Shown here: one piece after another, positions 29,513-58,300 of the stretch
How positions within the stretch are numbered: the stretch's first letter is position 1
Layout: every line of letters starts with the position of its first letter
Origin: Yuukianura sp. NJ FZ-2021
Taxonomy: Eukaryota
Assembly (NCBI GenBank): GCA_046563655.1
Contig: CM102290.1
Span: forward strand, 13,206,001 to 13,270,000
DNA length: 64,000 nt
Reading direction: 5' to 3'
Notes under the pieces: generated by a model
What the model saw: only the letters and a program-made list of their open reading frames with translations
Told to the model about the DNA's origin: nothing
The model's database searches: none
Program-made: the position numbers and the translations under genes

Positions 29513-31125
29513 TCATACTAACAAGTTTCCACTATGTTTTTTCCCTGGCCACGCCTCCTTAGCATACTTCTTCCGCTTAGGCTCATCTACAAATTCTGAT
29601 GGTGGAGGTCTAGCAGCCGAAACTGTTGGAGGAGGTGGTGGGGCTTGTTCAATTTTCTTGATATCGTCAATTTCAGGAGCTGGATTCGGCAGTGACATGC
29701 CCAATTTTGTGGATAGATTTTGTAACGTAGTAAAGTATGGTGTATTAACTGAGGTTTCAACCTGGAAATCCTCATACAGACTAACTTTTGGAACCAAATG
29801 ATGCTTCACTGGTTGATGTGGTACGAGACCCAGACTTAGACGAGGACGCTACAAAAACGGAACAAGAAACTTTTATATTCGTAGTATTATATAAACTAAA
29901 ATAACAAACTAACAAAATATTGCGAATAAATAATAAGCAGACAAAGCTATGGGGAAAATAAACTTGAAGTTTGTAAGCAGGATGAAGGTGAAGAAGGAAT
30001 TGGATTTTGCGAGGAGTGAAAGCTTGGTTCAAAGGTAAGTGCTGCGTCGCCCTTCGTAGAATACGAACACCTAAAGCACATAGGTCAAAGTTACATAAAA
30101 CAATACCTTCTTTTCAGATGGAATCACAGTGCTTTGAACTAAGTTTCTGAATCTGCCAATCGTTGGATCAATGTCTTCAGGATTTATTACCTCATGCACG
30201 TCACTAAAACTCACGCTTAGCTTCTTCCGCTTCTTCTTCCCTCGATCGTCGTCAGTGATTCCGAGCATGGAGATGCGACGATTCTGGGCAGTGTTGTACT
30301 CCGTCAGATTCTGAAAATTTCAGAAGTATAGTTTCGGTTTCCAAACGCATATTCTCTTCACGAGGTTAAAAAAACATGTAAGTATGAAATCTTACATCCA
30401 GTTCAGTGTCAGCTTCTGGCAAGCCCAGAAGTGCTCCGTCGTTATCTGAAACTTGTCGCTCTAGTTCGTAAATAACAGGACGAGAAGGATTGACTGGACG
30501 CTGACGCAGGATGTACTGGCGAGTAGAAGCTCCAAAGTGAAAGCGGCAATCCATTTGAAGCTGCGTGGGTTTATTGGCTTCAAGTCTCAACGTCCCGATA
30601 AACGTTCCATGTGCTGAAATACAAAGTTTGAGTGTATTGGAGTCTTTACTTGCTTTCGTGAGCATGAAAGATTTTAACAACATACTGCTTCCAAGGTCAA
30701 TCAAAAACGCTCGATCCAAATGCTTGTGATACACGAGGGCGGCGTGAATCCGAGAACAGGATGCGTGGTCGATACAAATATCGTTTTGTTGAGGGTTACG
30801 TCCGAAAAGGTAGTGTTTCTTCTGATCAACCATCAGTTTCTAAACAAAGAAGCATGGTGTTAATCGACTAAAATGTTCAACTTAGGGTATTTGTAATAGT
30901 TTTGCCTTTTCAACTTAAATTCATCATTTCTTTTACCTGAATCAGTTTGTCTCCCTTCATGACGTCCAGATGATAACCAGACGGAGGTACTTCGGCCCTT
31001 GATGTTCAAGTTTACGATTATTCTTCATACAATTCATCCTCCTTAATTTATTTTCTTAAGTTTTATTATTACCAATCGGGAATCTCGTAGCCTGGACCTG
31101 GACTCGGTTGACTCGTAGATGACAT
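29513..31125 (-). CDS. PPP1R8: Nuclear inhibitor of protein phosphatase 1 (FHA domain)
   Basis: MSST...YEIPDW|AEVPPSGYHLDVMKGDKLIQ|KLMVDQK; FHA motifs FGRN, SRIH, STHGTF-like; NLTEYNTAQNRRI; EVINPEDIDPTIGRFRNLVQ; C-terminus KKYAKEAWPGKK. Confidence 0.93.
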
Positions 31126-31769
31126 GCTGTAAGAGTGACAGTCTCCCAGTAACGACTAATGCCTTAATTCACTCCCCAATTTAACCTTTCAAAAAAACAC
31201 ATTACAATTATTGCACAAGTACAATACAATTTCATTCAAAAATCGGAATAACTTACTTGGTCGATTTACAGTTGGATCATCCAACTTGGACTTGGATGGA
31301 TGCGCAAATCAGGGGTTACGTGTCGTCCTTATGAACTTGATGTCTGAACCACGATCAACTGCTAGTGGTTGACTAATTGATTAATGTACGAGTAAAACTA
31401 AAAACCGGCTCAAAATAAGTAAATCTACGAAGTGTAATCAACTGTCTACTAAACAACAATCAACTCTCAGTTCTAAAATCTTATTCACAATCACCTGTGC
31501 TCTTTCCTTTTATATATGGAGACAGTGATGGTCGCTCGTGTAAATATGCGATGTGGACGCAGCTCCCCTGCGGATTGTACATGCGATGTGGGGTTTTGGA
31601 TTTCAAAACGCACAACGAAATATCATGTCCGTTTTGTTTACTGCAAAGTTAGTAATATAAACTCCTAACTGACTAGTACTGCCAATACAGGAAATTGTTA
31701 TACTATAATAGAAATGAGATACTATAACTTATTATTATCTCTGGTAGTATAAATTCGTAATGAATAAAT

Positions 31770-32030
31770 ATGTTATAGTGTATAACGTAGTATCACTCTT
31801 CTCTCAATGAGATGAACAACTTTTGTCAAGGCCATTTTCATGTCACCGGCGATAAACGCTAAACGTTCCTTGACCATTGACCAGGAACGGGTTGACCCAC
31901 CGGGATGATATTCAATAATGGAAATCCGGAAATGTAGGACCGTTTGGAGATAATTACTGCTGATGGGCGGATGGACGGCCATACAGACAGACTGAGACAA
32001 CTCAACCATAAAGTAGCTTTCGCTAAGTTA
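31770..32030 (+). repeat. Family E (Helentron/HINE-like) copy
   Basis: ggagataatt...ggacggccatacagacagac...aaccataaagtagctttcg, matching 11470-11612. Confidence 0.55.
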
Positions 32031-32441
32031 CCTAATAAGGGTTTATAAAACTTAACAGTCCGCTCTACCCAATAAGACTCTAACATAATAAATTATTAGT
32101 TAAGCTAATAATCATTTACTTTATTATTGAATTAAAGATACAACTGACACAGGGGTATTCATTGTCAACAGACGTAATTGATCACAAAGCTCCAATCTAC
32201 TAAAAACTATCCTATTGGTGATAATCAAACTGCTAAAAATATCTGTAGTACCACGTTCAGGAGGTCAAGTTTCATAAAAATATTTTATGAACCAATAATC
32301 TAGTTTTGCTAAGCTCTGAAAAATCATATTGCACACATTAATTTGGTAACAAAGTGAAAGACAATCTGTTGTCAGTCTTAAACAATTCAAGGCAATATTG
32401 TTTGTTCCTTCTTCAAAAAATATTTGTTCTTGGCACCAGTC

Positions 32442-35400
32442 TTAATAGGGATGGTGAAGGGGATGATGAATTTGCGTAAGAGGATGGCTTTGCGTCTTCT
32501 CTTGTACGCTGGTAGGTTGTGGGACGGTTCCATACGGCCATTGATAAACATACTGAGGATAAGCATATTCCGGTTGCAGTGTATACTGAGCAGGCGGTGG
32601 AAAAGCTGTATTCGGATACTGGAAAAACACAAAATGCAAACAAAAAGAAATCAGATTAGGAGCAATAATCCTACGAACGACGGTGGAATAAACGATAAAA
32701 AGCAAACACTATGCTATTTACCACATAGTTATGGGCAACTGGCTGCGATTGACTTGATTTTTGTTCTTCGATGGATTTCAATGCCACAGAAACTCCGGCC
32801 AGCATTCCCCTAACGAAGTCAATATCACCACGCCCCAGTGATGTATGAAGGTAATCTCGGTGACGCTGGTAAGTTTTCTCAGATCCAGACCCAGTCAACT
32901 CTCGTAAACCAAATGTTTTCAACGCCTCTTTAGTTACGCGTGTCCACTCTGTCTTAGAACAATAGAAATTGGACACTGGAGGCGGAGGAGAACGGCGGGT
33001 TGGTCTTGGTGGGGCGCTCCAAGGCTGCGAAAGAAGCTGCAATACATAACAAAATGGTATGGAGTTATGCTTGAATTTTATAAACTAATATCATTACATT
33101 TAGTTGTAGTATTTTAAAATTATCAATTAAGAGTAAATATTTAGAAAGGAAGCGATACCGGACGACGTTGTTGTGAGGTGACTGTGGCTGGCCTGTCGCG
33201 GATCGGAACTAAATTCGGGTTCGAAGTTTTTGTAACTTTGGCTGGAACTGGAGTTGGTTGTTGTGAGGATCGTTTAGGCGCGGACGTTGGTTGCTCTCGA
33301 GGCCTTGGAGCAAAGTTCTGATTCAACGGAAGGTAAATGGCTTTGCCATTTCCAGCACTACATGTGGGAAGTCCAAGGTCGTTGCGCAAAAGTCCGGTGA
33401 GCTGAAGAATGTGGAGTACTCTCATTGGAAGCCCATAGAGATCCGGCCCAAAAGCACTGAAGATGGCAAGCAAGGTTTGACCAGGAATGGACTTGAAATT
33501 CTCCCAAATAAACTCTACGTAACGAACTTTGATAGCATCGTCACTGAGTTTAAGTGTCTGGCGGCTATTTGACATGTATCTCTTCAAGAGGGCTTTGAAT
33601 AATTCAAACGGTATTACACAGTTTAGTGGACTCCATCCGTTTCTGGGCGGAATCTTCTGTTCTACTCTTGCCTCTTGGTTCAACGAAAGTTGGAAGAGAG
33701 ATGCACCGGTTTCCATCAAGATCTGACGAGATGCTTTGCCCAGGTCAATCTTGTTCCTTAAAGCCATGTCTCTTTTTCTGTCTATTTCTGGCTGGAGAAT
33801 ACGTCGCCAATTATCCACTTCACCTTTCGTGAGTTTCTTAACTTCGAAAATTCCAGCGGGAGATAGCCCATGGCGCCTGTTCTCGTTCTCAATGTGCATA
33901 TACACACCACGGTTCAAGACTTCTTTAGAAATACCACAACCCCTTCTGCGATACCTAAAAAATACAAATGGAACATTTTTAATTTAACCGTATGATTCAC
34001 ATTTACAGGGATTTGAACAAAATTCTAAACCTTCGAGTTTTTTGAACTACAATTCGTGATAGCAGCCTAACCTAAAAAAAATAATGGAGTTTTTCTACTA
34101 ACAATAAGCGATCAGCTAAAAACCAACGTTTTTGCAGAAATGTCAGAGCGCCCCAAGGTAAATAGAATACTCCTAGGTACGGTTTATTTACAATGAAAAA
34201 GAATTTCGGCAATTTTTTTTCCCCTCGACGACGTCATTTCTACCGTGAGTTTTTTAATGTTCAACTTGTGTTTTCTCTGTTTCCGTGTTAACGCCTTCAT
34301 TGAAAACTTTTTCCTACAACAGAAATCCTAAAAAACTCACTGTATTCCCCACGATGACGTCACGGATTTTAATTTACTTTTTTGTTGCCATTGGATACCG
34401 CCCCTAGCTGAGAGCGCCCCAACTACATTCGAGATTGTTTAAACAATATAATTATTAACAAAGTTTAACTTGTATCAAATTAATTTAAGAAATGACATTT
34501 AAAAAAACTGAAAAGTCAATTATGAACGTTTTCTGTTGTTTTTTTAAATCCATCAAGCTAAAATCATTTTAAATATTTTAATTTTTTTTTAGTTAATGCC
34601 TTCTTTTATTGTTCAATTCAAACAATTTGCAATGTGCGTTGGCGTACGTTCGAGTGTTTTTTTTCCTGATCGCTCAGTAGAAAAACTCCACCCTTTCTCA
34701 GATTAGGTTTACATACCACTGAATGAAAAGATCCATTCCATTTCCAGTTGCATTGTTGCTGTTGGCGCCGGAGAATTGGATTTGTATTGCTCGCAAGACC
34801 TCTTCGAAGTGAAAGTGGGAAAAATCCAGTTCTCGTTCCAGCCTGAAAAGTGAAAGAATTGGATTAAAGCAGCCAGTAAGTTACCCTGCACGGGTACTTA
34901 AATATTAGGAATAGGCATTGAAACAATGAGAATTTACCTAGTGTAATCTGCATGACACACAGCAGGTTCCTTTGTTGAGGATTCTTTTTGGATTTGACTG
35001 CCCAATGAAACTTGCGGCGGGGCGGTTTGACTGCCCAATGAAACTTGCTGCGGAGGGACTTGACTGCCCAATGAAACTTGCGGCGGGGCGGTTTGACTGC
35101 CCAATGAAGCTTGCTGCGGGGCCACAGCCATCCTTGTTCCAGTATTTATGAGAAGATTTTGTGCAGGCTCGGAGTTGGGCACAGTTTGAGACCAGTTGAT
35201 GAGCATTTGTTTTGAACAGAAGAGGCTAAGAATTCTTCCAGGATAGAATTTGAGATCCGTTCCAAAGGCAGAAATAACGGCCATGAGAAATTCTTCGTCC
35301 GTAGATGCAACGTTATGCATATACTCTATGTACCACTTCTTCAAAATGGCCGTTCGATGAGTCTGTGTAACAACACTTCCAACGACACGAGTCAAAAGCA

Positions 35401-36487
35401 TCGTTTTTTCGAACAGTTCGAACGCCATTGAGAGATTTAGTGGACTCCACTGAGCGTTCCAAATTAAGTCGGTCTGCAAAACACAATTAACGAACAGTAT
35501 GAGTTTTCAACTGTTTCTTTTGTATAAGCTAATATTTCAACTGCTACGATCATAGTATTAATTATAATATATGAATATAACCTATATGATAAGTCTTACG
35601 TTCATAATCGCCGCCCTCGGAAGTGGTTGAGAAAACTTGGGAGTCAATATAGACTGGAGTTCAGTTTTCCCGTCAATCAAGAATGCCAACATTTCTGTCC
35701 AGTGCCGCCTAGGATGAGAAAAAGTTGTTTTCACTTCGTTTGGATCGGCAGTACGCTGTCTAATAACATTATCCATATCCTCGTTTAGTTTGTTTCTGAC
35801 AGCCCATCTCTCATAGGCAGCTTTAGCAACAGCATCCGTCGCAGTGTCTTCTTTTACTTTGGGAAGACATCGGTTAAAGATTCGTTGGTTCTCCTCCATA
35901 TGACGAAAGTAGTTCAGCATTATAGTCTTCTGCTGAACTGATCCCACACGTGATGGAGATTGAACACCCTTTACTTTGTACTGGGAAACGAGCTCTACAC
36001 AGATCCACTCCACATCCATAACTTTAGGCAATGGATTGCCGGGGAACTTCTGTGCATGGGAAGCCATGATTTCTTCTAGAGTCCTCTCATTACGTTTTTC
36101 ATTTTGGTTTTGGATCTGACTTTCATTGTCGTCTTCCATCAAATCAACAACTTCTGGAGGAGGTTTCTCAGGAACGGGAAGCTCAACCACTGAAAGAGGT
36201 GGAGACACTGCGGGACCATAGTCATACCAACTGGTATCATGGTGATATGTCGGCGTAACATATCCAGAACTGTCCTCGAGATTAATAGTCTGAACAAATT
36301 CGTCGTCGTTGCCATTTTCTTCAAGATCAATAACTTCCACAACCTCCAGTACCGTAACAGGTGAATCAGGGCCTGGAGAAATTCCGTCGGGAACCTCACT
36401 TCTAATGGGTGGTCGTGGTTCTACCCGCGGTAGTCTGATGGAAGGTGGTGGCGGTGGCATCATTGTGGATTCTCCACGGGTGGTCAT
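32442..36487 (-). CDS. Orphan protein of ~950 aa: N-terminal SIM cluster, two copies of an unrecognised ~230-aa domain, Tyr/Pro/His-rich tail; 6 coding exons
   Basis: Frame-consistent GT-AG joins: 36487-35600, 35473-34938, ~34842-34717, ~33954-33159, ~33036-32722, ~32618-32442. The internal duplication is visible (WSPLN...FELF...SAFG.DL). Confidence 0.8.
34993..35120. repeat. 33-bp coding minisatellite (~4 units) encoding SLGSQ(TA/VP)P(P/Q)QV
   Basis: tttgactgcccaatgaaacttgcggcggggcgg repeated in tandem with alternating variants. Confidence 0.9.
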
Positions 36488-38030
36488 GATTTACTTCTGA
36501 TAGTTATCTGACGTGTCTAAAACAGAAAACTAATTAAAAAGTTGTCCAAGGAAATAATCGTTAAAACCGTTTACGCCAGGTTCAGAGATCTACACACACA
36601 CTAACTAGGTTTTGAAGATTTTACGAGACTGGGGTTAAGCGCTCAACGTAACGTGAGTGCCTTCAACAAGTAAACCGAACAATTAGTTAAGTTACTAGTT
36701 AATACTTTAAATTGACTAAAGCTGAAATAGTATACCTTCCTGTCTAATGAATAATCGGCATTTCACCCAAGGTTTTAGTCCCGGCTCCCGTGTTCCAACT
36801 GAAGAGTTGTTTTGTCTGTAAACATTTAAAAAATCAACTTACTTTTAGAAACAGGTGAAACTCAAAGAAGCAAGTTAAATTCAAAAGTTGAAGTTAAAGA
36901 TTACCTTGATAATGATAAGAAAGTTATTTTACCTTCTTTACATTTGGAATGTTGAACTTATTTAATTCGAATTGCATTGCAAGTTGCAATTTGCAACTTG
37001 TTATTGGGTGCTGTGCTGTGCTAAGAAAACAGCTCGAGTGTAAGTTGAGATAGTCGTGCAACTTACCAATGTAACCGGACTCTTTTTTCTAATAGTTAAC
37101 GGAAGGATATGATTGGACGATGCAACCATAAGGCTTGTGAACTTATATTTTCGACTGAATAACATCAATGGAAAGTTATTCCAGCCGCAGCCACCGAATT
37201 CTACATCATAATTGCCGGTGGCTACATTGTTTGAAAACAATTGCGTGTATGTATCGTTATTTCAACCCATGATAATACGTATATATTCCAATTCAAAGAG
37301 TACCATTATAATTAACTTACTCTATGCGATGACGACTTTCCGTTTGTTTTTTTTTATACTGATGTTACTTTGTGAATAACTCCTGAGACACAGTACAAGC
37401 TAAAAGCGGCTGGTTGCCTTGGGTCCATAACTGAATTAGTATACTGTATGATTATGGTTACATCGAAGGTTGGTCGAATTTACTGTAACAATAAAATGGA
37501 AGGAGGTTGGTTACAACAATGTAGTTCCGGTTGGCTTCAACGAAATAGAATGTCTTTGCTACATGTGAGTGTGCTCTTCCCGCGTTTTTGTAGAAATAAC
37601 GCGGCATCGTTGTCAATGTTAGGTATGTTTCTAAAAAAATTATAAACAATAATTGTTGTAATTATTGTACAAAATCTCTAAAATAATCTAACTGCGTTAA
37701 TCCAAATCAAGTTCAATCAACAACTTTTAGTCTTTATTGGATAAAACTATACAAACTACAAAATATACTTTGGAGTTCATTCATCGACAAACCTTTTTAT
37801 GTCCGAACAGACATTTAAAAAATGAGCTTCATACATCATGCTTCAACACGCCATGCAGTATTTAAATGTAAGAAAGTACTTGTTGATCCAACGTAAGCCA
37901 AAGTACTAGAACCTGATCATGATCATAACTACTTAATACTAACTATCTTGTAGGTGAACAGCCATGCTAAGTGAAACCAGGCGTTATTAACAAAAATAGA
38001 AAATGAACATCTCCGAGGAAGTAGGCAGTC

Positions 38031-41000
38031 TCAGAGGAAATACAACTGGTGAGCCAAATTTTCATGAATGTACTGGCCCTCCTCACGGTAAGTCGTTCCA
38101 GTCAAATAGGATAGCTTATGTGCATATTGGCAGACGAAAGGCACAGACACGGTTCCCGTCCAGTTATAGTAGAGATGGCAGAATTTGTGAGACAGAATCT
38201 GCAAACGATCTGGCGGGAACTTGTCTTCTACTCTGAGTACATTGTAAGTCGTCGGACTCACAGTTTGTCCCCTCCGTGGTTGTTGCGATATAAGGAAAAA
38301 GTCAAATCTGAAATCAAACAGGAACCCTTGCAGTTAGTACAATTTTGGATTTCTATTCTATTAACCGTTAATTAAGTATAATACCTTTCTGGCATTGTGA
38401 TGACACTGTCGACACATGTTCCCGGTTGTGGATTGTCAACTTCTCCTCTGAACTTTCGCATCAATCGAGCATTTCCCTTCTTCGTAACAATGATGAAATT
38501 AAATTTGAGTATTTTGTTGGATCCACTGTAGACTCCCTGGATACTTTCCTGTAAAACCAATATGGTAATGAGTGGAACTGTCAACTTACGAACAAATGTG
38601 AACATTCAAAATGTTTTAAACTTACCAAGAGTTGTCTCACTTCATGGTCGTTTACATACTGAAAAATTTAAAAAAAAAAGTAAGGGAATGGGTTTACACC
38701 AGCAATGCATGTGCATCAACAGAAAATACAAGCGGAAATGCATAGGCAGTAGTTTAATAAGCATTTACAAAGTTTTATTTTTAGAAATGCTTACGGTGAG
38801 GTCTCCTTCTCCAACACCATCACGGTACATGAACACACGATCCGGCAGCTCGTTATTCTTTTGTTGAAAAGCCATGAGACATTCTGTTAAAAAAAAAATA
38901 TTTACAACTCTCTGACCGTGGTTGAGTAATATTTTTAAGCTAATAAGCTCTGTTACTTGTGAAATCTTTGCACATATTATCCGATAAGTTATCAGCATTG
39001 CAGTGTGTAGACACGGTGGAGAAAAACTGCGAAAAAGAATTGTTGGTCGTTGCAACCATAGCTCCAATTGATATCTTGGCCTTCCCTTTGCCACTGTGGT
39101 GAACGTCAAAACCAACGACCATGGTGTGCTGTAAAACCAAAATGGCACAAATTAGAACCAGAATGAATGGCAAGGCAGTACAAGTACTCCGCAGTATTAA
39201 TCCATAAAGATTACACTCTGTTTGAATGGATTCACAGCAACCCATGGTGAACCTCCAAGCTTAGCATTCATTTGAATCACGACCTTGGTGCAAACGCTTT
39301 TCAACCCTCCTGTTTATTAAAAAAAACAGATGAATCAAATATTTCATTTTACAAATAGTATACTAGTGGGAAATTCGTAGTTGTTTACCTTGCTTCTGCT
39401 CTGCGAGATGTTTCGACTGGAAGCACTGTGACCGCACTATTGATAACAAGAGTCAGTCACTTTCTAGGCTTGATAATCTCACTACACTATGAAATTTTAT
39501 GATTATGAATAATTTGAAATACCTCCGAACTCGATGTTGCACCTCTTCTTGATAGCAGCATACGCGTCTTGGGAATTGTTCGTCAAAATGACGAATATCA
39601 TTTGCAAGCCCTTGATCTTATCCACTGCTTCGTTGATTCCATTGACGTAAGCTCTGCTCGCATCTCTTCTGGTGTCTGGACATGCGATGCTGAAAACATT
39701 ATTTACACGATATTGAGATTACACGATTTTGTGAGAAGTGATACAGAGAATGAATTGACGAATGCTTCTTACACTTCTGGGTTTGGGTTTATAGGAAAAT
39801 TTAAGCCATTAGCAACAAATTTCAGCGCATCCAGAAGTCTGGATACTGAGCTTCGATTCTCAGTCCCTACGATAATGGCCCAGTTCTTCATTTCAATGGA
39901 ATTGTGCATCCGCATTTTTCCTGCATACAAAACGATAAATTATGATACTAAAAAGTGAAAGACACAGTAAAACGTTTTTACTAAAAACTGAAGACATTGA
40001 CTCACCTTTGAAGTTATTAGTCCAATCTGCATTCGGTTCAACTTGAAACTTCTCTTCTGCATCGTTCCTGATGTTACGCATGATCATGTTTTCTGGCGGT
40101 AGAATTCGACCTGGAACGTCAACCATGTTGCTATTTACCGACATGCCCCACTCTTTGAGATTTCCTTGAACCTGTTTTGGAGTATAAATTAACGTTTGAG
40201 TAACGTTGTCATATTGAAGTAGAAAAATACTGTGTGCTAGAGTGCAAGTATTTTCTTGTGATGGATACCTGAAGATTCGATGTCAGTCTGCCCATAAACG
40301 ACATGAGTTGGTCGTGGCGCCTCCTGGGTTCCAATGAAGTGACACTGTGAATGTCACGCATTAAGTTGAAGTCACTCTTTTGATACTCGGAGAGTCCAGT
40401 AATGTTACAAAGCTCTGGGATAAGAAGGATATTCGAGCTCATTCCACGATGACGATCTCGTCGGCTCGGTTTACTGATCAGCAGTGGCTGATTCATATCC
40501 CGAATCCGAAATCCTGGATACTTTTCGTTGTAATAATCCAAGAAAGACTTTTCTTGCTTCTGGTCCCCACGACCTAGTTCGAATGTTGATCCAGGGGTTT
40601 TGTCCCAGTCAATGTCATGAATCTTGTAGGTCTTTCGGTTGTACTTGGTGATAACGACGTTCCCTACAATCTCACTCTGAATTCGTGGTTTATTAAACCC
40701 ACAAGATTGTATCACTTCCAAGCAATTTTCCAAGCGAAGGACTTTGGACCTGAGGTCAACATTGACCAATAATCCTCCATCGTAACAACGCAAGGCGACT
40801 GAGTATCCAGGCCAAATCTCCAACCTGGAGTTGGCCAGCTGCTTTGTGTTTTCCCGTTCAAAAAAATGTCGACCAATCTCATCTAATCCCATTAGTCTCA
40901 AACACGTTCTGACGATGATTCCGTAAACTTGGAGGTATTGTGAATCTCCAGGCTCAACTGTACCAACTTGCTTGATCGTAATTTTGACCTGTTGACCGGT

Positions 41001-41774
41001 ACTGCTCATGGAGTATTTCTCAGAATCCTAAAAATTAATTAAACTTCAGAAAAAAAGAAATTTAAACATAGGTATACTAAAAAGAGGATTTCTCACCAAA
41101 TTAGCAAGAAAAGAATACAGATTGCTGCCATCAAAGATGTATCCGTGCAGATCACTTTGATGAGCACGGACTAAAGTACGTTTGTCATGCGTCTTTTCTG
41201 GTTCGGGGTCGAAGTCAACACGGTAATTGTAAAGGGTCAAGTGGTCTGCAGTTGTTTTGACCTTGAAGTAGTTGGCCAATAGTTGAACATGTTCTCCGGA
41301 TCGACCTAACTTGCTTTCGACATTATCCGGTTTAGTTTTGACGTTGTCATAACTTCGGATCTCTTGCTCTTTCAGTTCCTGCCTCTCCTTTTCCATTTTT
41401 GCCCGGAATTCGTCTGGAGGTAAACGAGGACGTCGTCCGCGACCACCACCGTTGCCTCCACGAGATCCGCGGTCACCGCCTCCACGAATGTGAGGATCGC
41501 TTCCTCTACTGCTATGACCACCTTCACCTCTGCCATAACTGTCATCTCGTCTTTGGCGCTTCGAATCTAAAGGACAGAATGAGTTAAATTATTAGCAAAT
41601 CAAGAGTTGCCAGGGTCAGTAATTAGAATTTTTGTCAGTGACCTCGTTAACGGTCAACAATTTACCTTCATCTCTGCTCTCGTCCCGCTGTCTACGACGA
41701 TCACCTCCGCCATTTCCTCCGCCGTATCCCCCTTGATAACCGGCTCCACCACGACCCCGTGGTGTGTAAGACAT
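38031..41774 (-). CDS. piwi: PIWI-clade Argonaute A (Piwi/Aub-like) with a variant catalytic tetrad D-N-D-H
   Basis: RG-rich N-terminus (MSYTPRGRGGAG...), LLANYF, PAZ (YNRKTYKIHDIDW...LLIPELC), MID (YAAIKK, SQC, QMNAKLGG), PIWI domain (GFDV, YRDGVGEG, PGT, HLYYNW, CQYAHKL) and C-terminal LYFL. All exons join in frame. Confidence 0.95.
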
Positions 41775-46392: not shown

Positions 46393-49300
46393 ATGTCAAA
46401 CGCTTGGGCTGGACGAGGAGCACGAGGTGGAGGTGGGCCGAGAGGCGGTCGTGGTGGGGCTAATGGTGGTGGACCACGGCCACCACAGCCGAACAATGGC
46501 GGCGGACCTTATCCACCATTGAGGCCACAGCATCACTCTCAGGGTAATCTGTCCGATTACTTTTATGCATTAAGGCTATGTGCGGTTACGGTTCAATCTC
46601 TGAGCAGAGTGTGAGATAAAAAAATGAAGGCAAATATAATTAGTCCGAACTTAACGGAAATTCCAGGCATGGCTTCCGTAACCCAAAACATGGCCAACAT
46701 GAATGTTTCTCAACAACAACGACAGCAACAACCACAACGCGGAGGTGGTGGACAGCATGAAGGTATGTTTTGGAACTTGATTACTAAAAATAGTCCCGTC
46801 GTGAGAATTTTGAATGTTTCAAATTGCCCCAATCGAACGATGTGTTCCATTGTTGCCGATTTTATCAAGCAAATTGAGCCCATATGCCTTAAATCTAGTG
46901 TTCCCAGTTTCGGTCACTTTTCAGAATTTTTGTTTGAAAAGAACGATTACACAGTAGGCGCATGCGCCACGTCTAAAACCTGGCCACGCCCCCAAAATTT
47001 TCAAATTTACCAGGCCTCCTATAATGTCAAAATAAGTTTCGGTCATTTCGTTAGACTGAAAAGTGCTGGTTCGAAATGTCCAAAAAACTTTTTCAGAGGC
47101 GGACGATTAAAATGTTCAAAAAACGTTTTCGGGCGGACGATTGAAATGTCCAGTGACTGAAACTGGGAACATTGTCTGAATCTCTTATGTTTAGGAATGA
47201 GTAGCCGCGGTCGTCCTCACCGTGAACAAGGTGCAAGCGGGTATTCTGATGGGAACCGTGACCAAGGATCCAGTAGTCGCTCTGGCGGGAATGGACGGAG
47301 TCGTGGTGCAGATCAAGGAAGTGAAGGACCGAAGAAGAGAGGAAGGCGGGAAAACAATTTTGACCTCGTGTTGTCACGTAATGCCGTTTGTGGACCCGAT
47401 CGGCCGTCGAAACGAGGTGCTGGTGGAGAGAAGATCCAACTCGTTGCGAATTTGTTCCCGTTGAACAAAAAGCCCGACTGGACACTCTACAACTACCGAG
47501 TTGACTTTAAAAATGCGCGGGAAGGAGGGGAAGAAGAACAACGTACGTTTGTCAAGAAAGGACTACTGGCTGAACAGAAGAACTACTTGGGCATGCACAT
47601 CTTTGATGGATCAAACTTGTACACGATAGCAAGACTTACACCGGAGGTAAATTCATCGTTAACTAATCAATTTCTTAATTTGACCAATATCTTATTATAT
47701 TTCAGCCGTTAATCTTGACCTCTCTTCGAAGAAACGATAATACTCCGTTTGAACTTACGATTACTCTGGTTGGTCAACTTCACCCGACGGATGTAGCCTA
47801 TCTCCAATTCTTCAACATCATCATGAGAAAATGTCTGTCACTGCTCAAGTTTACTCTGATTGGTCGACATTTCTATGATCCTGAAGCCGAGATCAATTTA
47901 GCCCAAATTGGCTATGTCCTCATTCCTGGATTCATTACGAACATTCGACAATACGAAGAACGGCTCATGATGTGTGTTGAAATTACACACAAAGTACTCC
48001 GCGAAGGGTCATGTTTACAACTGAGGCGACAATGTCGGAATAACAACGAGTACCGAGACATGTTGGTAGGATCAGTCGTCCTCACCCGTTACAACAACAG
48101 AACGTACCGTGTAGATGACATTGCCTGGGACCAGAATCCAAGCACAACGTTTGAAAGCAATGGAACCCGCGTTTCTTTGGCTGAATACTACAACCGAAAG
48201 TATCAGCTGAGAGTTAATGATATGTCACAACCACTCTTAGTTTCACGTCCGAGAGCCCGGGATCTTCATCGAGGAGATAATCAAACGATTCTTCTCATTC
48301 CCGAATTTTGCCATCCTACTGGAATCCCTGATCAGGACAGACAAAACTATACCAAGATGAATGCTCTTTCAACCTACTTGCAGCAAGATCCAAGTAGACG
48401 AGCAGCGTCAACAATTGGATTCATGCGGCGCCTGCGTACTTCGGATACTGTAAGTTTATTAAACGAAAGCTACTTTATGGCTTGACCTTGTCTGTCTGTC
48501 TGTCTGGCCGGCCGTACATTGATGATTCTTTGTTTGAAATTTGATTTTAACAGACACGCACTCACCTTACTAGCTGGGAGCTTGGGTTTGAAGGGATGGA
48601 TTTGGTCAATATCCAAGAAGGAAGAGTGTTGCCACGGGAAACCCTCTTTTTCAGAGATCCGAAGACTCCGTTCAAGGTTCCGGCTAATGCTGATTGGACG
48701 TCCGAATTAAGAACCGGTACGACTTGTTGTATTTGGAGTTAATTGTTGTAAATAAGATTTTAATGACGCATTCTTTCGTTCACTAGGTTCTGCAAATAAG
48801 ATGGCAGCAGCCCAGGAGTTCCGTAACTGGGTTCTCATTACACCAGCACAAGTGAACACCAATGACCTATTGAGCATCATGATCAAAGTGGGAAATGGCA
48901 TGGGGTTCCCGGTTTCTAACCCGCTTCATATGTAAGTCAATTTTTCCGTTTGACAATGATTCGATTAGTCCATATTTTGTACAATGATGTTCAAATGTTT
49001 TAGAGAGAGGATTCAAGACACAAGAGTCCATGGCTATTTGACGGCTCTGGAGTCCGTCAAGAACAATTTCAAAACGGCCAACCTCATTTTCACGGTCATG
49101 CCGCAAGCAAAGGACACGAGTGCGATTTACAACGAGGTCAAGAAACGCTGCCTCACTGTTTACGGGAGTAAGTCAATTTGAACTCCTACAAACAAAAATT
49201 AGTCGCTTTTCACATGTAGTAACATGAGTTTTAACTTTTCAGTTCACAATCAGTGCTTTCAAGCCAAACACCTCAGCCCGAACAACAGCGGAAGGTTGAT

Positions 49301-50735
49301 GTCCGTCGTCACGAAACTTCTGGTTCAAATTAACGCTAAGCTGGGCGGTGAACCGTGGAAGATAAACTTGAACTTTAAAGTTCCAACGGTATGTATAAGA
49401 TCTTTACAGTAGAACCTCACATTAGCAACACGCTATGACTGGCTGGGTTGATGTGGTACCGTACGGCTCCAATTTCTATTTCATGTGAGATATTGGAAGC
49501 GATCTGTTTTGTTTAAAATCCGTCCAAAAAATTAAGTTTTACGGTATTCCACCGTAGGGGGAGATGGATCTATTGCTTAGGTATGCAAAGAGCCAGAGTA
49601 AAAAAAAAAAAAATTTTAAAAGTTCGCGCGCCGAAAAATCTGGTTTTTCAAACTTTGTTGTTTACCATTTTTGTGTGAGGGATTTTTTAATCAATTTTTT
49701 TTTACTCTGGTTCTTTAGGAACCTAATAAGTAAAAGTTCCGCCTTGAGAGGTTCTACTGTATCAGTGGTCTTCGTTTAATTTCAACATGTGATTGAAACT
49801 TACGTTTTGCAGATGATCGTGGGCTTTGATGTGTATCATCCTGGCAAAGGTAGAGACGCTGGACGGAAAAGCTACGGAGCAATCGTCGCAACGACGAATA
49901 GATGTGCCTCAAAATTCTATTCCACCGTGACCCCACACGAAGGAATGCAGGAGATTTCCAATGCACTGGAGTTGGATATTCTCAGTAAGAAATTCTTAAG
50001 TTACTGTCCAAATTCTTAAAATGCTTAAAAAATTAATCCAAAACATGTTTTTTAAAATTAGAATGCGTGAAGGCGTTTCAGAAAGCAAATAGTGGCGTGG
50101 TGCCGCAATACATAATCCTGTACAGAGATGGCGTCGGGGAAGGGCAACTGGGCTATGTGTACGAAACGGAAGTCGGACAAATTCAGGTATTTTGACCTCA
50201 GTCAATTGCTGAATTGAGAAAGTTTTCACTTTTTCACTTTTAACTTTGTTTAACTTTTACTTTTCCTTGCTAATAGAGGGCGTTGAAGAGCTACTATGAC
50301 ACATTGGGAAAGATGGCGCCAAAACTACTCTTCGTTGTCGTAACGAAAAAAGGAAACGCGCGAATCATGACCCGACATAACCAGAACTACGACAATCCTC
50401 CGCCTGGGACAATCGTTGACAACACAATCACACTTCCAGAAAGATACGACTTTTTTCTGGTGGCTCAACAAGCCCGTAGGGGACAAACTGTCAGTCCAAC
50501 GACTTTCAACGTTCTCCATGACGACGTCAAAATCACTCCAGCCGAGCTTCAGGCCCTAACTTTTCAACAGTGCCACATGTACTTCAATTGGTCAGGAACG
50601 GTGGCCGTTCCAGCAGTTTGTCAGTATGCACACAAATTGGCGTACTTGACTGGAACAGGGCTGGACACTGCGGCTGGAGCTGGACAAGCTCCTCTTGTCC
50701 AGGAACATCTCCTGTCCTATCTCTACTTTCTCTAA
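46393..50735 (+). CDS. piwi: PIWI-clade Argonaute B (Piwi/Aub-like) with an intact DEDH tetrad
   Basis: N-terminus MSNAWAGRGARGGGGPRGGRGG, LVANLF, PAZ (YNNRTYRVDDIAW...LLIPEFC), MID (YNEVKK, NQC, QINAKLGG), PIWI domain (GFDV, QEIS, YRDGVGEG, HMYFNW, CQYAHKL) and C-terminal LYFL. All exons join in frame. Confidence 0.95.
46896..47174. mobile_element. hAT-like MITE in a PIWI-B intron
   Basis: TIR tagtgttcccagtttcggtcac / gtgactgaaactgggaacattg. The flanking 8-mers cttaaatc and tctgaatc resemble a decayed 8-bp target duplication. Confidence 0.7.
48460..48515 (-). repeat. Family E fragment in a PIWI-B intron
   Basis: cgaaagctactttatgg...tgtctgtctgtctgtc is the reverse complement of the 11570-11612 and 31980-32025 motif. 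Confidence 0.6.
49405..49761. mobile_element. Family-D pogo-like MITE in a PIWI-B intron, carrying a nested inverted-repeat element (~49577-49726)
   Basis: Outer TIR tacagtagaacctc / gaggttctactgta. Inner TIR ttagg..caaagagccagagtaaaa / ttttactctggttcttt...cctaa, which is absent from the 10285 copy. Confidence 0.75.
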
Positions 50736-52370
50736 GTTACGAATGGTGGAGCACTTTTTACTTATCATTTAGTAAGCATTTTCGGAAGAGGTGGATACTG
50801 CCATTATACTGCCAGTTGCACATGCACGTTTCAAAGTTACATGTAGAAATCTGTTACAAAATACTTTTATTAAGGACTTTGGCATGGTACGGTACAACTT
50901 AATCATACGACTGTCAATGTCAAACGTTTCTAAATGTTAAAGTTTTAAGAATTTTAAAAAGTTCAAAATTTTAAAGTTTTTAAAAGATTTTATTGTTCAT
51001 TAGTTTTTCTAAATTTGTAGCTGAACCAATGCCTTGATCCTAAATTTTAAATACCTCCTCTATATGCGCATATTCGAACAAAATTATTTCAAATTGAATT
51101 CTAATTTTAAACTATTAATAATCATATATGTTTGTATATAATCTTATCAAATATTTTTATTCTAAATGGAATAAATCCATGGTAAAAAGTCAAGGCGAGA
51201 AGTGAAAGCAGGAAATTTCAAATTCCTGATAACTTTTTCTCATTTAAAATCAATTTTCCCCATATTTAACGTGATTGAAAAAAAATGCCAATGAAATCAA
51301 AATCCTATCAGAAAAAAAATGGAATACTAATCTTGTTTTTCTGAAATATTCTTGTAACTGGGTGCTAAAACAGCACAGAAAGACATCTTCATGAAAAAGA
51401 TAAGAGTGAGGTGAAGCGGTTTTTATTTTTTGGTTATGGCAGACTTGGAGAAAGTAAGGGAAGTGGCGAAAGTTCGCCCTGAAGTTTGAATCTGCCAATG
51501 GCAAAATACAAAATTGGAATGGCAATTGCAAATTGAAGGGGAAAAAATCTAAATTGTAATAATAACGTTCTATAAATTCGCACTATAATAAATGCACTTT
51601 AACAAAATTAAAGTACCATTCTTTTAAAATTTAAAAATAATAAAATGTTAAAGTATATCAAAATCAAAATATTAAAATATATAAACAAAATCCAGAAACT
51701 TCTTATCGATCATGATGTTTTACTGGTTATATGTATGTTGGGGCGACTGGTACGAGGTTCCATTTTGTTAAATGTCTAAATTTCAAAAACATTTGCCTTC
51801 TTGGAACTTGAATTTTCCAACCCATGGTAGTTTTAGCCAGTATTGCTGTATGTTCTCCTGTTTGACGTTTTATTCAGTGGATACCTTTCATCCGGAAGAA
51901 ATGGCTGGATAAAATGGACGGAAACGGATACTTTGACCTTATTTGATGTAAGTAGAAGAAATATTTTATCCTACCGACAACCCTGGTTGTTGGCACAAAG
52001 TGTGCATGTGCCAAAGTGTAAAATATGGAATTGCCATTGCTGTTGATTGAGTGGGTGGGTGGTGCGCCTGTGCGGAGTGACGTGCAGAGTGTAGCTACGG
52101 AGGGATGCATTGGTTTTGATCGACTCGTATGCGTGTCCTCCCTCCCTGTCCCTCCTGTCACTTTCTTTTTCTTCGTTTCTCCGTCCACTGCAGTCTCACT
52201 CTCGTCTCTCAGTCATAGTCGGCCATTTTCACTGATCCCAGTGGTGCCTCCGTGACTAAGACCACAGCAGACACACTCACTCTCCGACTCCGGTATAGAC
52301 GATCCTCTCCTCTCGTCACTACTACTTTCATCAGTTATCTTCAATTAACTAAATTATAACAGTAACCACA

Positions 52371-55300
52371 ATGTCAGAACGAGAGGACAACGTGTACAAG
52401 GCCAAGTTGGCGGAACAAGCGGAGCGATATGACGGTAAGTCCTCAATTAACAATCGTTTTTACCTTGTCACGACAACGTTCCTTCCGTGCCTCATCGGAA
52501 AAGTTCAGTTTCGTTTCAGTGACTTCATATAAAGTAGATCGATGTGTAAAGGGAGGAGTCCGTTCAGCCGGATGTGTTATATCATTAGGTTCAATTCGTG
52601 GTATACTGTCTATCGATGATGTGCGGCGTAGTGTAGTTTCGTAATTAAGGTATGCAGTAACGTATACTTGAGGTGCTTAATGGCGGCTATTAAGTTGTAC
52701 TAGTTAGGGTTGGTGAGTATCGGTGGTTGTTACGGAGGTAGGGTTTTGCGGAGGAAAGAAAACCTTATACGTCATGCAATTTTTAAATCGGGTTTCTTTT
52801 AGAAACTGACTTTCGATTTTGATTTAACTTCGGCAGCTGAAATCTAAAAAATCGGATAAGTACTTTAACAGCGAAAACTCACTGTAACGAAGAGCGTCAG
52901 TTGTAAATGATTGGGTAATATCGGTACATTTCATGTCAAAAGATGTAGGTGGAAGTCAGAATTGAATCGGAAATTCCGATTCGGAACATGTCATTAGATA
53001 AAAAAAAATTATGTAAGCGTGAAACAGGTAAACCAGAATTTGGTAAGCAGATTTAGGCCTGGGAATCGGCGAATCCGGTTCACACGAATTTGTGGGTAAA
53101 TTCGAGCATGCTGAAATCGGATGCGTTTAATCAATGTTGGGTTAAGATTCGGTTAGGTGTGGTCAGTTTTTGGCTGAAAGTCTGGGTTACGTCATACAGA
53201 AATATCTCACAAAAACTTTTGTTTTAATTTTGATTTACTTTTGTTTTTCAAAATTTTTAGTTATTTTCTTTGTTCCAGTAAATCATAGTCGGATTCTCAT
53301 TCCCCATCAAGCAACTGTAAAAGCTCTATGAAATTTATGTTACAGAATTCTTTTCAAGATTTAGTTTTATCCCTCACATAGACGATAACGTCATTTTCGT
53401 CGTTTCGTTTTTTTTAGAATGAGAGATGTGAGTTCAACTTAGAATATAAGGCATATCTGCCGGTTGAAACCATGGACCTACCGCACTCAATGTCCGATGT
53501 GTTTTTAAGTTTCACTCTTCGTTTTTATCTATCCTTAGTTTTCAAGTTTAGGTCAGATGACATTTGAAACTAAAACGGAAATCCAGAATGATTTTTAGTA
53601 GTGTTTCTTTCATGTCAAATAGTACATTGTTGTAAACGAGTAACTCAGGGGCCATTACCGGCTTTGGCTTTGGGTTCGAGCTAACCAAATTTAACGTACA
53701 TTTAAAGTGCATTTTTACCGTACATTGTGCGGTACGGCGTACAAATAATATTCGGTTCAATTCGTAGGCGAGTTGGAGTTGCGCCTTAAATGCCGGGAAA
53801 TTGGTATTTACCGCCTGAAGTTTTTGAGAGACAGCGGGAGTGTGGAAACAATGAATGATACTTGAGTCATCCTGATGTTATACCGCCCTCCACCGTTGTG
53901 GTGGCTCTCCCCCACCTCCTCCTCAATTAATCCTTAACGTACTACGTAGACGTAGGTTGGTGTAGGATGGGAATATGTGAATGTGAGACTTGGTATGTCG
54001 GAATCTGCAGAGTGTAGCCACTGTTACTACATAGGCCTGTTACTACCACCACCACCGCAGGCAAGTGCTAGGAGTCTGATATATAAGGAAAACTCCTTGG
54101 TCATTGCATCCCCTGTTAATGTTCGTTTCCAAGGTCAGTGTGATACCAAGTACTAAGAGAGTACGTTGAGTGAATGATGTACAGCTCTAGTTAGGTTTAA
54201 GTACGTTTGGGAGAGTCTTAAAGACGAAAGTGTTGACATGGCGGGTACTAAATTTGAATTGGTCAATTGATTTCAGGGTAGCTTCGAAATTTTGGCGATA
54301 TTTTGGATACTAGGCAGCGCGGAATTTGAATGTTGAAGTTGAATGAGTTTAACGGCGCATTCCGGACGCTAATTTATGAAACGTTGTCTTTACGTTTTGT
54401 ACTTTTTTGAGTTAAGGTTGTTCCTTATAAGGAAGTAGGATATGCCGGGGTTTCCGGGAAAGTTCAGTTTGAGAAATATGCTGGGCACCTTCCAGACCGC
54501 AACAGGATGACGACAACAACGGAACTGGAGATGACGCTGGTTCTGTACTTCTGTAGTAGTAACTGTCCCACCCTCTAATGGAGTTGCATGTTTGCTTCAA
54601 TTCGTAAGTAGGGATCAAGATCCTATAGGCTATAATTTGGACGGACAAACTGAATGTAGTACATTTTGGATAAAGTTTTGTCTTTTTTAGTCTTTAGTGA
54701 CTAAATCCTAAAGTTTAGTCTTTTTTACGAATTTATGTAGAGTCCAGATTTACGTAACGGTTAAAATGCTGAATGAAATCATAAGCAAAGTTTGCTTGTT
54801 TGAATTTTTGCAGAACACTCATGCGCAGAAGCATGACGTCTAACTCCTGTTTTCCGCCACTTTTTTCTTTGCTGTCTTGAATTACTGTGTTGTAATTAAG
54901 GAGAAAGTGGAAATGATAGTTAAGTTGGCGCGGTTTTATGATGGAGTTGGACACTTCTGGTTATGCGGCCGTGCAAAAACCATTTATATGACAGGTTCTA
55001 ATTAGTAGTTATTATTTTGTATTTCTTTTGCTACGCTTTTCTCCGGATGATGTTCTCCCCCGAACAATTTTATTAAGGTCAAACTACTGGGCTAAGATTC
55101 AAGTCGTTTCGGCCCTGCACTGAGAGGCACAGGCTCTGACGTCCCTGCTTTTCCATGACTCTTGGGGAAATTTCATGAGACTAATTCACTCAATTACTTG
55201 GTTGGTTTGATACTTTCCTTGTTCGTCCGATTTGTCAGACAAACTTTCTCTGCTTGAACAGTTTATGTTTTTGTTTAGTAAGAGTGGGCAAAGTTTGTAT

Positions 55301-58300
55301 TAACCGGAGTTTAAGTTTCGACTTACTTTGGTTGATGGATTATGAATTCGGTTTCACTGCTTTCATGTTGTTAGGATTTCTAATACTATCACTAGTAGAA
55401 TTACTTGTATTGTATAGCACTTGCTACTAATCCTAATCAACAGGAGCTGGAATCAGGGTTAATTACAGCTTAGGCAGTCTAAAATTGGTGTACCACACCC
55501 TGTGACTTTGGCAGTTCGGAAGTAATATTATCCTTGTTACAGTAAAACCTCTCATTTCTGAACTTTTTTTTTAGTGTCATTCACGTGATACAGTAAAAGT
55601 TTAATTTTGTTTTGGGGGGGATGTCGGATTTACACAAAAGAGCTGTGGGCGGTTTGGGCCGACTGTACTGTATTTAGAAAGTTTACGGTAATGGCGAAAA
55701 CCTTTGAACGAACCAATTAATCATAGGTAGAGAGTTTAGGATTGAGAAGTTTGACTGTATTTGAGTTTGTTCAATGTTCAATGAAATTTTCCGGATACAA
55801 GGACGATTCAGTTTCAGTTTTCGAGGTTTTTTTTGTGTGTGTTTTTTTTGTTGGTTTGACCTCTGACCTTTGCTTTTGCTTGGTGAGACGAAAGAAGCCA
55901 TGACTCTCTAGATCTATAGTGAAGTGTGTTCCCACAAAATGGCCTACGCCCTCATACCTCCCTTGCCACAACTTTTTGTTGAAAGGAGAAACAGAAATGG
56001 GTAATGGAATTGAAGTGACGAAAGTGTTTTGGTCGTCGTGTCAATAGTGGGAATTCCGTAGGTCTCTGGTTTGAGAAGTGGAGTGAAGTGTCGAAGTTTG
56101 TGTCGGAGTGTCAAAGTGAAAGTTGTACCGGTTATTTTATGGCGTAATGGGCGGGATACGTTAGTAACAGCTTAACCTGTACATGACCGTGAAAGGAAGT
56201 TGAGAGTTTTAGTACTAAAGATTTGACGGAGTGGAAGGAAGGTGTAAAAAAGTGGCCGAATTCGTTCTGTCACACTGTACTTTTTGATATAATCTCCCTA
56301 TCCTACTGCGTTGTAAATCTCTTTTCCCGTGGAATTGTACTTAGATTAAATTCTACTTTTGCCGTATTTCACCTATGCTTTCCCCAGAACTCATTTTTGT
56401 CTTTTGTGTGGCAAATTCAAAGTAGTAATCTTGATAACTTTCGTCGTTCAGCGTCTGCTTTTCCTGTGCAATACTTTGATCATACATTTGTATGTGAGCG
56501 GTAAATGTCTGGGTTTACAGAGGAAAAGCAGTGAAGATGTAATGAGAGTTGGTTTTGGAAGTATTTGGGACAACTCATACTTTTTTCTGTATTAATCTTA
56601 ACATTCCTGAATGACTAACATGAGTAACCTTTTTAGTTGAGTGGATTGTTCATTTTTGGTATGTAAGATAGATTGGTGATTTATGAGAAATGGATTTCGT
56701 GATGTACGGATGTAAATCGATTGCAATTTGGTCTAATTTCCCTGCATGGAAAGTAGAATTTTCTTAAATGTTTTCAGAGTAACAGTAATAATAAGTAGTT
56801 TGACGTTATTTGATTAGAAAAAGTATTAGAAGACGGTAGAGGTGAAAGAGAAATAGGAAAAGTTGGTAGGGCCATGTAGACAATCCTATTTGTACAGTGT
56901 TGTTCACGGAAAAAACAGACGAAAATTTAGAATCGTTTTTATGTCGTTTTTGGTGAAATCAAAATTTTTTGGGGGGATTTTGAGACCAAAACGCGGGAAA
57001 GAATTTTTTGACTTTTTTTAGGTTTGTGCTCATTATACCCCGTAATTTTCAAAATTAACAAAGTTTTGAGTTTGTTGGGTGTCTACTTTTGAGCAGAACT
57101 TTTGAACAACACTGTATTTTGAACTTACTTCGTCCTAGTAACTGAACTGTGAGAGTAAGGGAAGCATATATGTATTGGAATTATCGATTTGTTTCTGCGG
57201 GCAGGCGCCTTTACTTGGGTGTCTCCTGTGCATCCTTCCACTTGAATCCACTTTTTTCTTTCTCTTTTTCACTCTTTCTCTCTTTTCCTGCGTTTTAGGT
57301 TGAGAGAGTGAAAGTTCGTCGTATGTCGGGAAGGTGATCGTCCTGGGAGGATCCATGTCCATAGTCTATGATTTCAACCTATCTACGAGGAACTTATTTA
57401 ACTAATGCTATACAGGAGAAAAGAGAAAGTAGAAAGTAGTTGTTTGTTGGGCATAAGATGAGTGGTAAAGGGATCGGAGAGATGAGGAGATGGTGATGGA
57501 ATGAGGAATTTTAGGGGAAAGTGGAACTGGATTGGAGTCACCGTACTCTGTGAATCTGTCGTGTATGGAGAAAGCATTGTCTTCCGGAAGTTCCTCTGCT
57601 AGAGAAATTTCTGTGGAGGACTCCTCAAGCCAATGACAACAGGATGTTTTTTTTTGGTTGTCTCTGGGATGTGGACAGGATTTCCGGATTGTAAAAGTCG
57701 TAGAAGGCACTTTTTGAAATAGAATTTAAGGATGTGGAAATTTAAAAGGTCACATCCTACTCAACTCTTAGGCTGGTGAGAGCAGAATTTGTGCCGGAAA
57801 ATGTTTCTCTCCGGAAGAATTTCACGGCTTTTCACTCAGCCAAGTTGGTTGCGGCGACGCATGTTCTCAAAATGTTGCGTAAGAGGCGGAATGACTGCGA
57901 AATTCACAAATGTAGGATTAAGTATGTCGAGGGCTATACTGGAGGCAGGAAACAGCTTTTGTTGCCCCGGGCAACAGCGAAGGAGAAAATCAATCTTGAG
58001 CTTACCGTGTTGTGGAATTTTAATGTAGATTGGTGGAAGATGGAAGTTATTTTTTTAAGCTTAAGTTTAACTTTGTGTTTGACCTTTGTTTTTTAGAAAT
58101 GGTGGAGGCCATGAAGAAGGTTGCAGGCCTAGACGTGGAACTTACCGTAGAGGAGCGGAATCTTCTGTCTGTTGCTTACAAAAATGTGATTGGAGCGCGA
58201 CGAGCATCGTGGAGAATTATTTCTTCAATTGAGCAAAAGGAGGAGAGCAAAGGTGGAGAAGAGAAGTTGGAGATGATCCGCAATTACCGAGCTCAAGTAT

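Follow-up and report, generated by a model that had tools for sequence, protein, structure and literature searches.

The 64,000-nucleotide stretch of DNA analysed here (the window) carries two divergently oriented Piwi genes, PIWI-A and PIWI-B. The original prediction was that PIWI-A lacks the catalytic glutamate of the slicer tetrad and should bind guides but may slice poorly. The locus raises the question of whether this loss is real and, if so, what kind of Argonaute it leaves.

PIWI-A gene structure and expression

The coding span of PIWI-A lies on the minus strand at 38031..41774 and comprises 13 exons with GT-AG introns, giving an open frame of 898 aa (exons 1–7: 41774-41666, 41566-41097, 41027-40269, 40171-40006, 39920-39773, 39689-39523 and 39436-39389; exons 8–13: 39309-39215, 39128-38957, 38883-38795, 38658-38626, 38548-38385 and 38307-38031). 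An RG-rich N-terminus and the N, L1, PAZ and L2 regions, then MID and PIWI, follow one another in a single frame, with the PIWI domain split across seven short exons. Both the first catalytic Asp and the loop with the glutamate finger are encoded in exon 9 (38957..39128, minus strand). With Pfam, ArgoL1, PAZ and Piwi scored over the cut-off and ArgoN under it. The domain order, the MID pocket and the grouping with Piwi/Aub proteins all fit a PIWI-clade Argonaute, and judged by these features PIWI-A is one.

Contigs of four public runs cover parts of the gene. All 12 introns are skipped at their GT-AG ends in contigs of run X4, which is not so in runs X1–X3. Run X4 is labelled "DNA?", and we read it as RNA-derived; since every intron is skipped in it, PIWI-A is probably transcribed. 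Genome searches returned no second identical copy of PIWI-A that could be a retrocopy. The PIWI-A gene is both unbroken and spliced.

Run X3 has the 3' half of PIWI-A (38011-39522) in a single contig whose end leads back into its beginning, with a 6-base microhomology at the junction and a depth of 37 against 0-6 over the rest of the gene. Such a contig could stem from a circle, from a tandem array or from an artefact of amplification. No copy of the arrangement was seen in the genome of the window.

Residue at the glutamate-finger position

The codons on which the prediction was built are both present in the window: AAC for Asn701 of PIWI-A at 38988-38990 on the minus strand and GAG for the Glu of PIWI-B at 49951-49953 on the plus strand. 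In the spliced models the tetrad reads D662-N701-D733-H870 in PIWI-A and D-E-D-H in PIWI-B, so the catalytic glutamate is indeed missing from the former.

The best PDB match of PIWI-A exon 9 is Siwi, the DEDH slicer of Bombyx mori (PDB 5GUH). A phmmer search of PDB sequences aligned the exon with Siwi residues 665-713, with one gap upstream (E 1.1e-05). Siwi Glu708 stands opposite N701 and Siwi Glu707 opposite D700 (38991..38993, minus strand), so that no acidic residue of PIWI-A falls in the Glu708 column. The same finger column was obtained from an 11-sequence exon alignment and from the profile built on it, which was compared with Siwi, EfPiwi and PIWIL2 (E 3.1e-17 for Siwi). In the exon alignment no indel displaces the finger loop in PIWI-A or in L023, the ortholog described below.

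The codon was checked in contigs, not raw reads, of the four runs, which represent two samples and two studies. Contigs of X1 (38000-39383) and X2 (38838-39467) cover the Asn701 codon and contain 0 other letters. Run X3, from the second study, has 7 differences from PIWI-A, all of them away from this codon. The spliced X4 contig spans exon 9, with no exon-9 difference among those listed (38 weaker differences fall outside the listing). Runs X1, X2 and X4 come from one sample, possibly the source of the assembly itself. Most of the exonic differences listed across the runs are silent (15/19).

It is very improbable that Asn701 reflects an assembly error, a misalignment or a duplicate in terminal decay. 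The genome does contain further Piwi copies that are degenerate or incomplete, such as L017 on contig C12, which is matched by its last exon only. Nevertheless, AAC is unaltered in contigs from two studies, the register agrees between phmmer, exon alignment and profile, all introns are skipped in one run, the frame is open over its whole length, and L023 also has an amide at the finger, with dN far below dS. All three possibilities are thereby largely refuted, and a pseudogene was rejected.

Guide pocket and remaining active-site residues

The prediction that the other tetrad residues and the MID 5'-phosphate pocket are kept was upheld. The pocket consists of Y594, K598, Q610 and K639 (39260..39262), together with the PIWI-type Gln635, and the C-terminal Leu898 is also present. 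The Drosophila Piwi counterparts are Y551/K555/Q567/K593/Q589/L843.

Within the active site, all on the minus strand, the first catalytic Asp is Asp662 (39105..39107; Siwi D670), the second is Asp733 with the preceding Arg732 (38819..38824), and the fourth tetrad residue is His870 (38118..38120). His665 (39096..39098), the equivalent of hAgo2 H600, is a finger partner and target-backbone contact. Ser674 (39069..39071) is the equivalent of hAgo2 S610 by alignment column. The plug-in partners H665, S674, R732 and E747 are all retained. Compared with a canonical DEDH slicer, PIWI-A has D, D and H and fails only at the glutamate finger. In the last exon, residue 873, three past the catalytic His, is changed from Ala to Ser in both PIWI-A and L023; the same Ser occurs in the DEDH protein P0162.

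Piwi family in the genome

PIWI-B, the divergently oriented DEDH paralog, lies on the plus strand at 46393..50735. It was modelled from 47197, and a likely RG-rich upstream exon is predicted at 46393-46543. Beyond it, GC skew stays positive throughout the region 52000-60000, reaching 0.31, and neither a long ORF nor a large tandem repeat occurs there.

The 98.7-Mb genome contains 11 Piwi-clade gene models: nine of Piwi/Aub type (PIWI-A, PIWI-B and L010-L016) and two of Ago3 type (L018 and L020, both DEDH). Nine of the 11 have Glu at the finger, and the same nine are DEDH; the exceptions are PIWI-A and L011. Three near-identical DEDH copies, L013, L014 and L015, lie inside 200 kb (G000:C8, 11.6-11.8 Mb).

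L011 is an intact 12-exon sister paralog of PIWI-A on another contig (G000:C4, ~11.27 Mb). It has Glu and Gly at the two catalytic Asp positions, so that its tetrad reads E-Q/V-G-H. Four alignments place Gln at the finger and a fifth places Val there, an ambiguity that arises from a 3-residue insertion in the loop. An acid precedes the finger in all three clade members: D in PIWI-A, E in L023 and D in L011.

A maximum-likelihood tree of the PIWI region was calculated from 35 rows, with L013 standing for the near-copies and AGO-clade rows left out. PIWI-A falls on the Piwi/Aub side (27 rows) of a 100/98 branch, away from Ago3/PIWIL. All nine Piwi/Aub-type genes group with an Allacma fusca Piwi (100/96), apart from insect Siwi/Aub, and PIWI-A probably belongs to a lineage-specific, probably springtail, Piwi expansion. 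Within this group PIWI-A joins L023 at 98/91, the two join L011 at 100/96, and PIWI-B is placed as sister of this amide clade at 92/73. PIWI-B and the amide clade also have a one-residue insertion in common, found in 5 of the 91 sequences scored, including one unrelated protein in another form. PIWI-B is likely the DEDH sister of the amide clade.

The original prediction framed the change as PIWI-A against PIWI-B, and this framing did not survive. The closest paralog of PIWI-A is L011 (49% identity, against 41% to PIWI-B), and the Glu was lost before the species split, as shown by the Gln of L023. A recent point change between the two neighbours was rejected.

Lineage-specific expansions of Piwi/Aubergine are known in arthropods, with duplicates in 28 of 100 transcriptomes, and insects often carry Piwi/Aub duplications (PMC5521735). 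The several Piwi/Aub copies of the present genome resemble them. The available part of that paper does not describe the catalytic states of the duplicates, whereas the sub-clade examined here forms a graded series: DEDH (PIWI-B), D-N/Q-D-H (PIWI-A and L023) and E-Q/V-G-H (L011).

A syntenic ortholog with glutamine at the finger

Scanning metagenome contigs with the PIWI-A and L011 exon alignment gave 223 pattern matches, which reduced to 6 loci. Among the orthologs found, only L023 covers the PIWI domain. It is 72% identical to PIWI-A in amino acids over 272 codons, with pS 0.90 and dN 0.22, silent sites being saturated. The five introns in the available part are the same as those of PIWI-A. 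A NIPP1-like FHA gene then follows on the same strand, as it does in the window (30107..31005, minus strand, matched part only), with 72-94% identity over four exons. On these sequence features L023 is a syntenic ortholog of PIWI-A from another species.

Other searches added less. Those with exon 3 and exon 13 returned no full-length PIWI-A ortholog, and when exon 9 was used in a word-based search for homologs, 2 candidates came up, neither of them significant. A HMMER search of representatives found two fragments of the clade that lack the PIWI domain, P0013 (67% identical, PAZ only) and P0050.

The Piwi and NIPP1-like genes are ~1 kb apart at the L023 locus. In the window, the interval 31100-38000 contains long ORFs that have no Pfam hit (33141-33983, 34934-35506 and 35582-36490), the second of which carries a 33-bp repeat. 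Nothing at the L023 locus matched them, which means that one lineage gained or lost the block.

At the finger L023 has Gln (CAG) preceded by Glu, as read in one contig. D662, H665, S674, R732, D733, E747 and H870 are all retained, four of the seven with a silent third-base change. Among 41 columns with a conservation of 90% or more across 65 DEDH references, PIWI-A and L023 both depart at 2, namely the finger and A873S, while L011 departs at 6, including D662E, H665R and D733G. Along branches of similar total length, active-site residues changed at 0/5 positions in PIWI-A and L023 versus 4/5 in L011 (Fisher p = 0.048; the test is post hoc and small, and the sites are not independent). This contrast favours continued selection on the active site of PIWI-A. 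L011 shows that an intact clade member can do without these active-site residues, yet PIWI-A and L023 kept them.

The Gln of L023, the two shared departures and the decay of L011 together indicate that the loss is old and limited to the finger. It is a real loss and no recent accident. In the PIWI-A lineage the finger likely went from E through Q to N. The simplest history would place a single Glu-to-Gln change in the clade stem, followed by Gln to Asn in PIWI-A and further decay in L011; the single origin leans on reading the L011 finger as Gln, a register made ambiguous by the insertion.

Occurrence of finger-only changes in other PIWIs

Database PIWIs with a complete tetrad numbered 82 (8 of 90 PIWI-domain matches were dropped for lack of full tetrad columns, and P0015 was misaligned there). 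DEDH accounted for 63 of these, and a further 7 had the pattern D-x-D-H with a finger residue other than Glu (4 D, 2 G, 1 T). In a second alignment two of the 7 became DEDH, for a total of 65, and one was gapped at the finger. Neither Asn nor Gln was found at the finger in the 82 proteins under either alignment; together with the Glu of nine of the 11 models in this genome, this speaks against chance as the source of Asn701. Four proteins with a non-acidic finger (P0053, P0060, P0111 and P0117) all lack the H665 equivalent, which PIWI-A and L023 retain. Finger-only loss is, in this set, uncommon but not unique.

In three proteins of the same springtail-like clade, P0044, P0111 and P0117, the finger position is occupied by Asp, Gly or Ala, which suggests repeated independent finger loss within the springtail-like expansion. 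Two further loci, L027 and L028 (~3001-3159), carry a Piwi-like exon of another organism with Glu-Gln at the finger and Pro in place of the partner His; their Gln may be an independent E-to-Q change.

A DNDH or DQDH PIWI was not found among the open-access papers listed, which is weak evidence of novelty because most subscription papers lie outside that scope. The papers listed included no Collembola or springtail Piwi paper on this clade by title or abstract and no relevant report of E-to-Q finger mutants, and the accessible portion of bioRxiv 10.1101/2023.06.23.546240 gave no passage on the tetrad.

Comparison with Siwi and Drosophila Piwi

The Siwi tetrad is D670/E708/D740/H874 (PMC7015924). 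PIWI-A shares with Siwi the MID pocket, the tetrad residues D, D and H, the His located three positions past the first Asp, and an acidic residue at −1. It differs in that the finger change is natural, to Asn (Gln in L023), and in belonging to a separate expansion that groups with the Allacma fusca Piwi. In layout the E708V mutant of Siwi equals PIWI-A, and it is the nearest tested analogue, since Siwi too has an acid at −1. In the sections of PMC7015924 available, slicing by E708V is reduced and not dead, while H874K almost abolishes it, and the authors regard the His as essential and the Glu as facilitating. The predicted combination of guide binding with poor slicing fits this mutant, the only direct PIWI experiment found.

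We consider it improbable that PIWI-A slices at a near-normal rate, with the −1 acid (D700; Glu in L023) swinging in for the finger or a cofactor making the finger needless. The −1 residue is acidic throughout the clade, the whole plug-in network is retained in PIWI-A, and the finger loop of Siwi is described as flexible and disordered (PMC7015924). Against this, an acid at −1 is common, occurring in 25 of 63 canonical DEDH PIWIs, in Siwi itself and in the paralogs L010 and L012-L015; Siwi has Glu707 and was nevertheless weakened by E708V (PMC7015924); and neither PIWI-A nor L023 has an indel that would shift the loop. The suggestion that the adjacent Asp partly compensates was therefore dropped as a special feature, although Asp700 may still be used in catalysis.

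A stronger alternative, which we hold tentatively and below the preferred reading, is that PIWI-A is in effect a non-slicer. Like Drosophila melanogaster Piwi (PDB 6KR6), a DVDK, non-slicing nuclear protein, it would act as a piRNA-guided binding platform that silences through recruited factors, possibly in the nucleus, with D-D-H and its neighbours kept for binding metal or the target backbone. Both proteins are duplicated Piwi/Aub types with a lost finger and a kept guide pocket. A finger mutation abolished slicing in KpAGO, according to the portion of a review seen here (PMC10772731), which also counts against slow slicing. Sister L011 has lost both Asps, so slicing is dispensable in the clade; nine DEDH paralogs remain in the genome; and loss of slicing has been proposed to aid co-transcriptional silencing (PMC7015924, part of the Discussion). 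Drosophila Piwi retains both Asp without slicing (PMC7015924), and a His of the H665 type contacts the target backbone (PMC10772731, in part), so that retention of Asp and His in PIWI-A has non-catalytic explanations too.

Nevertheless, in Drosophila Piwi the essential His has been replaced as well (K818), and so have the partners of the finger (K617, A625), and PIWI-A keeps H870, the equivalent of the essential Siwi His874, as well as H665 and S674. A KRQR NLS-like motif near the N-terminus of PIWI-A and L011 would suit a nuclear role, but the same type of basic motif occurs in the DEDH protein PIWI-B and is thus non-discriminating. Moreover, the tree does not support orthology between PIWI-A and the DVDK protein P0053, which falls outside the 100/96 clade that contains PIWI-A. 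The origin of PIWI-A is independent of that of Drosophila Piwi.

Proposed mechanism of slow slicing

Since Siwi E708V keeps reduced slicing, slow slicing is the best reading, ahead of non-slicing binding and then of near-normal slicing. We put a probability of about 0.5 on PIWI-A being a functional, piRNA-guided slow slicer of Piwi/Aub type, its activity being predicted. PIWI-A probably holds small RNAs normally and is predicted to cut targets slowly. It would work like a weakened Siwi, and neither as a canonical DEDH slicer nor as a Drosophila-type DVDK Piwi.

Loading of piRNAs would occur through the MID pocket and PAZ, and the two Asp and the His would continue to keep the metals in place and the target in position. 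The finger is a second-shell contact that hydrogen-bonds with waters around the site-B Mg, as described in the part of the review available (PMC10772731). An amide at this position can form hydrogen bonds but is uncharged, and in Asn it is also shorter, and would support the metal-bound waters poorly. Cleavage would then be slower, or dependent on near-perfect pairing or a cofactor.

In evolutionary terms, a local duplication would have produced PIWI-B, with DEDH kept, and the A lineage. Along the stem of that lineage Glu would have changed to Gln; another duplication would have yielded L011, which then lost its Asps, and in PIWI-A the Gln would have been replaced by Asn. Slower cutting would give PIWI-A a longer stay on targets, while the nine DEDH paralogs provide fast slicing.

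Significance

Non-slicing PIWIs are already known, the usual loss being that of an essential Asp or His. What appears to be new here is a syntenic ortholog with Gln at the same finger column, and two proteins, PIWI-A and L023, in which the finger alone of the tetrad is changed. A natural finger-only change kept between distant species is a direct test of the weight of the finger in PIWIs, for which the only mutant found, Siwi E708V, was merely weakened (PMC7015924, in the part available).

It is possible, although on balance we think it unlikely, that selection holds this springtail Piwi clade at a deliberately slow cutting rate. PIWI-B, PIWI-A with L023, and L011 would then form a stepwise record of the passage from slicer to binding platform with a stable functional intermediate, in which an amide occupies the finger and the rest of the site is intact across species, while in a sister copy the loss is complete. 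One genome holds a DEDH neighbour, PIWI-A and a further-degenerate sister, and the three related proteins can be compared side by side. Such a comparison would reveal whether the rate of slicing has been tuned and by what route a slicer becomes a binding platform.
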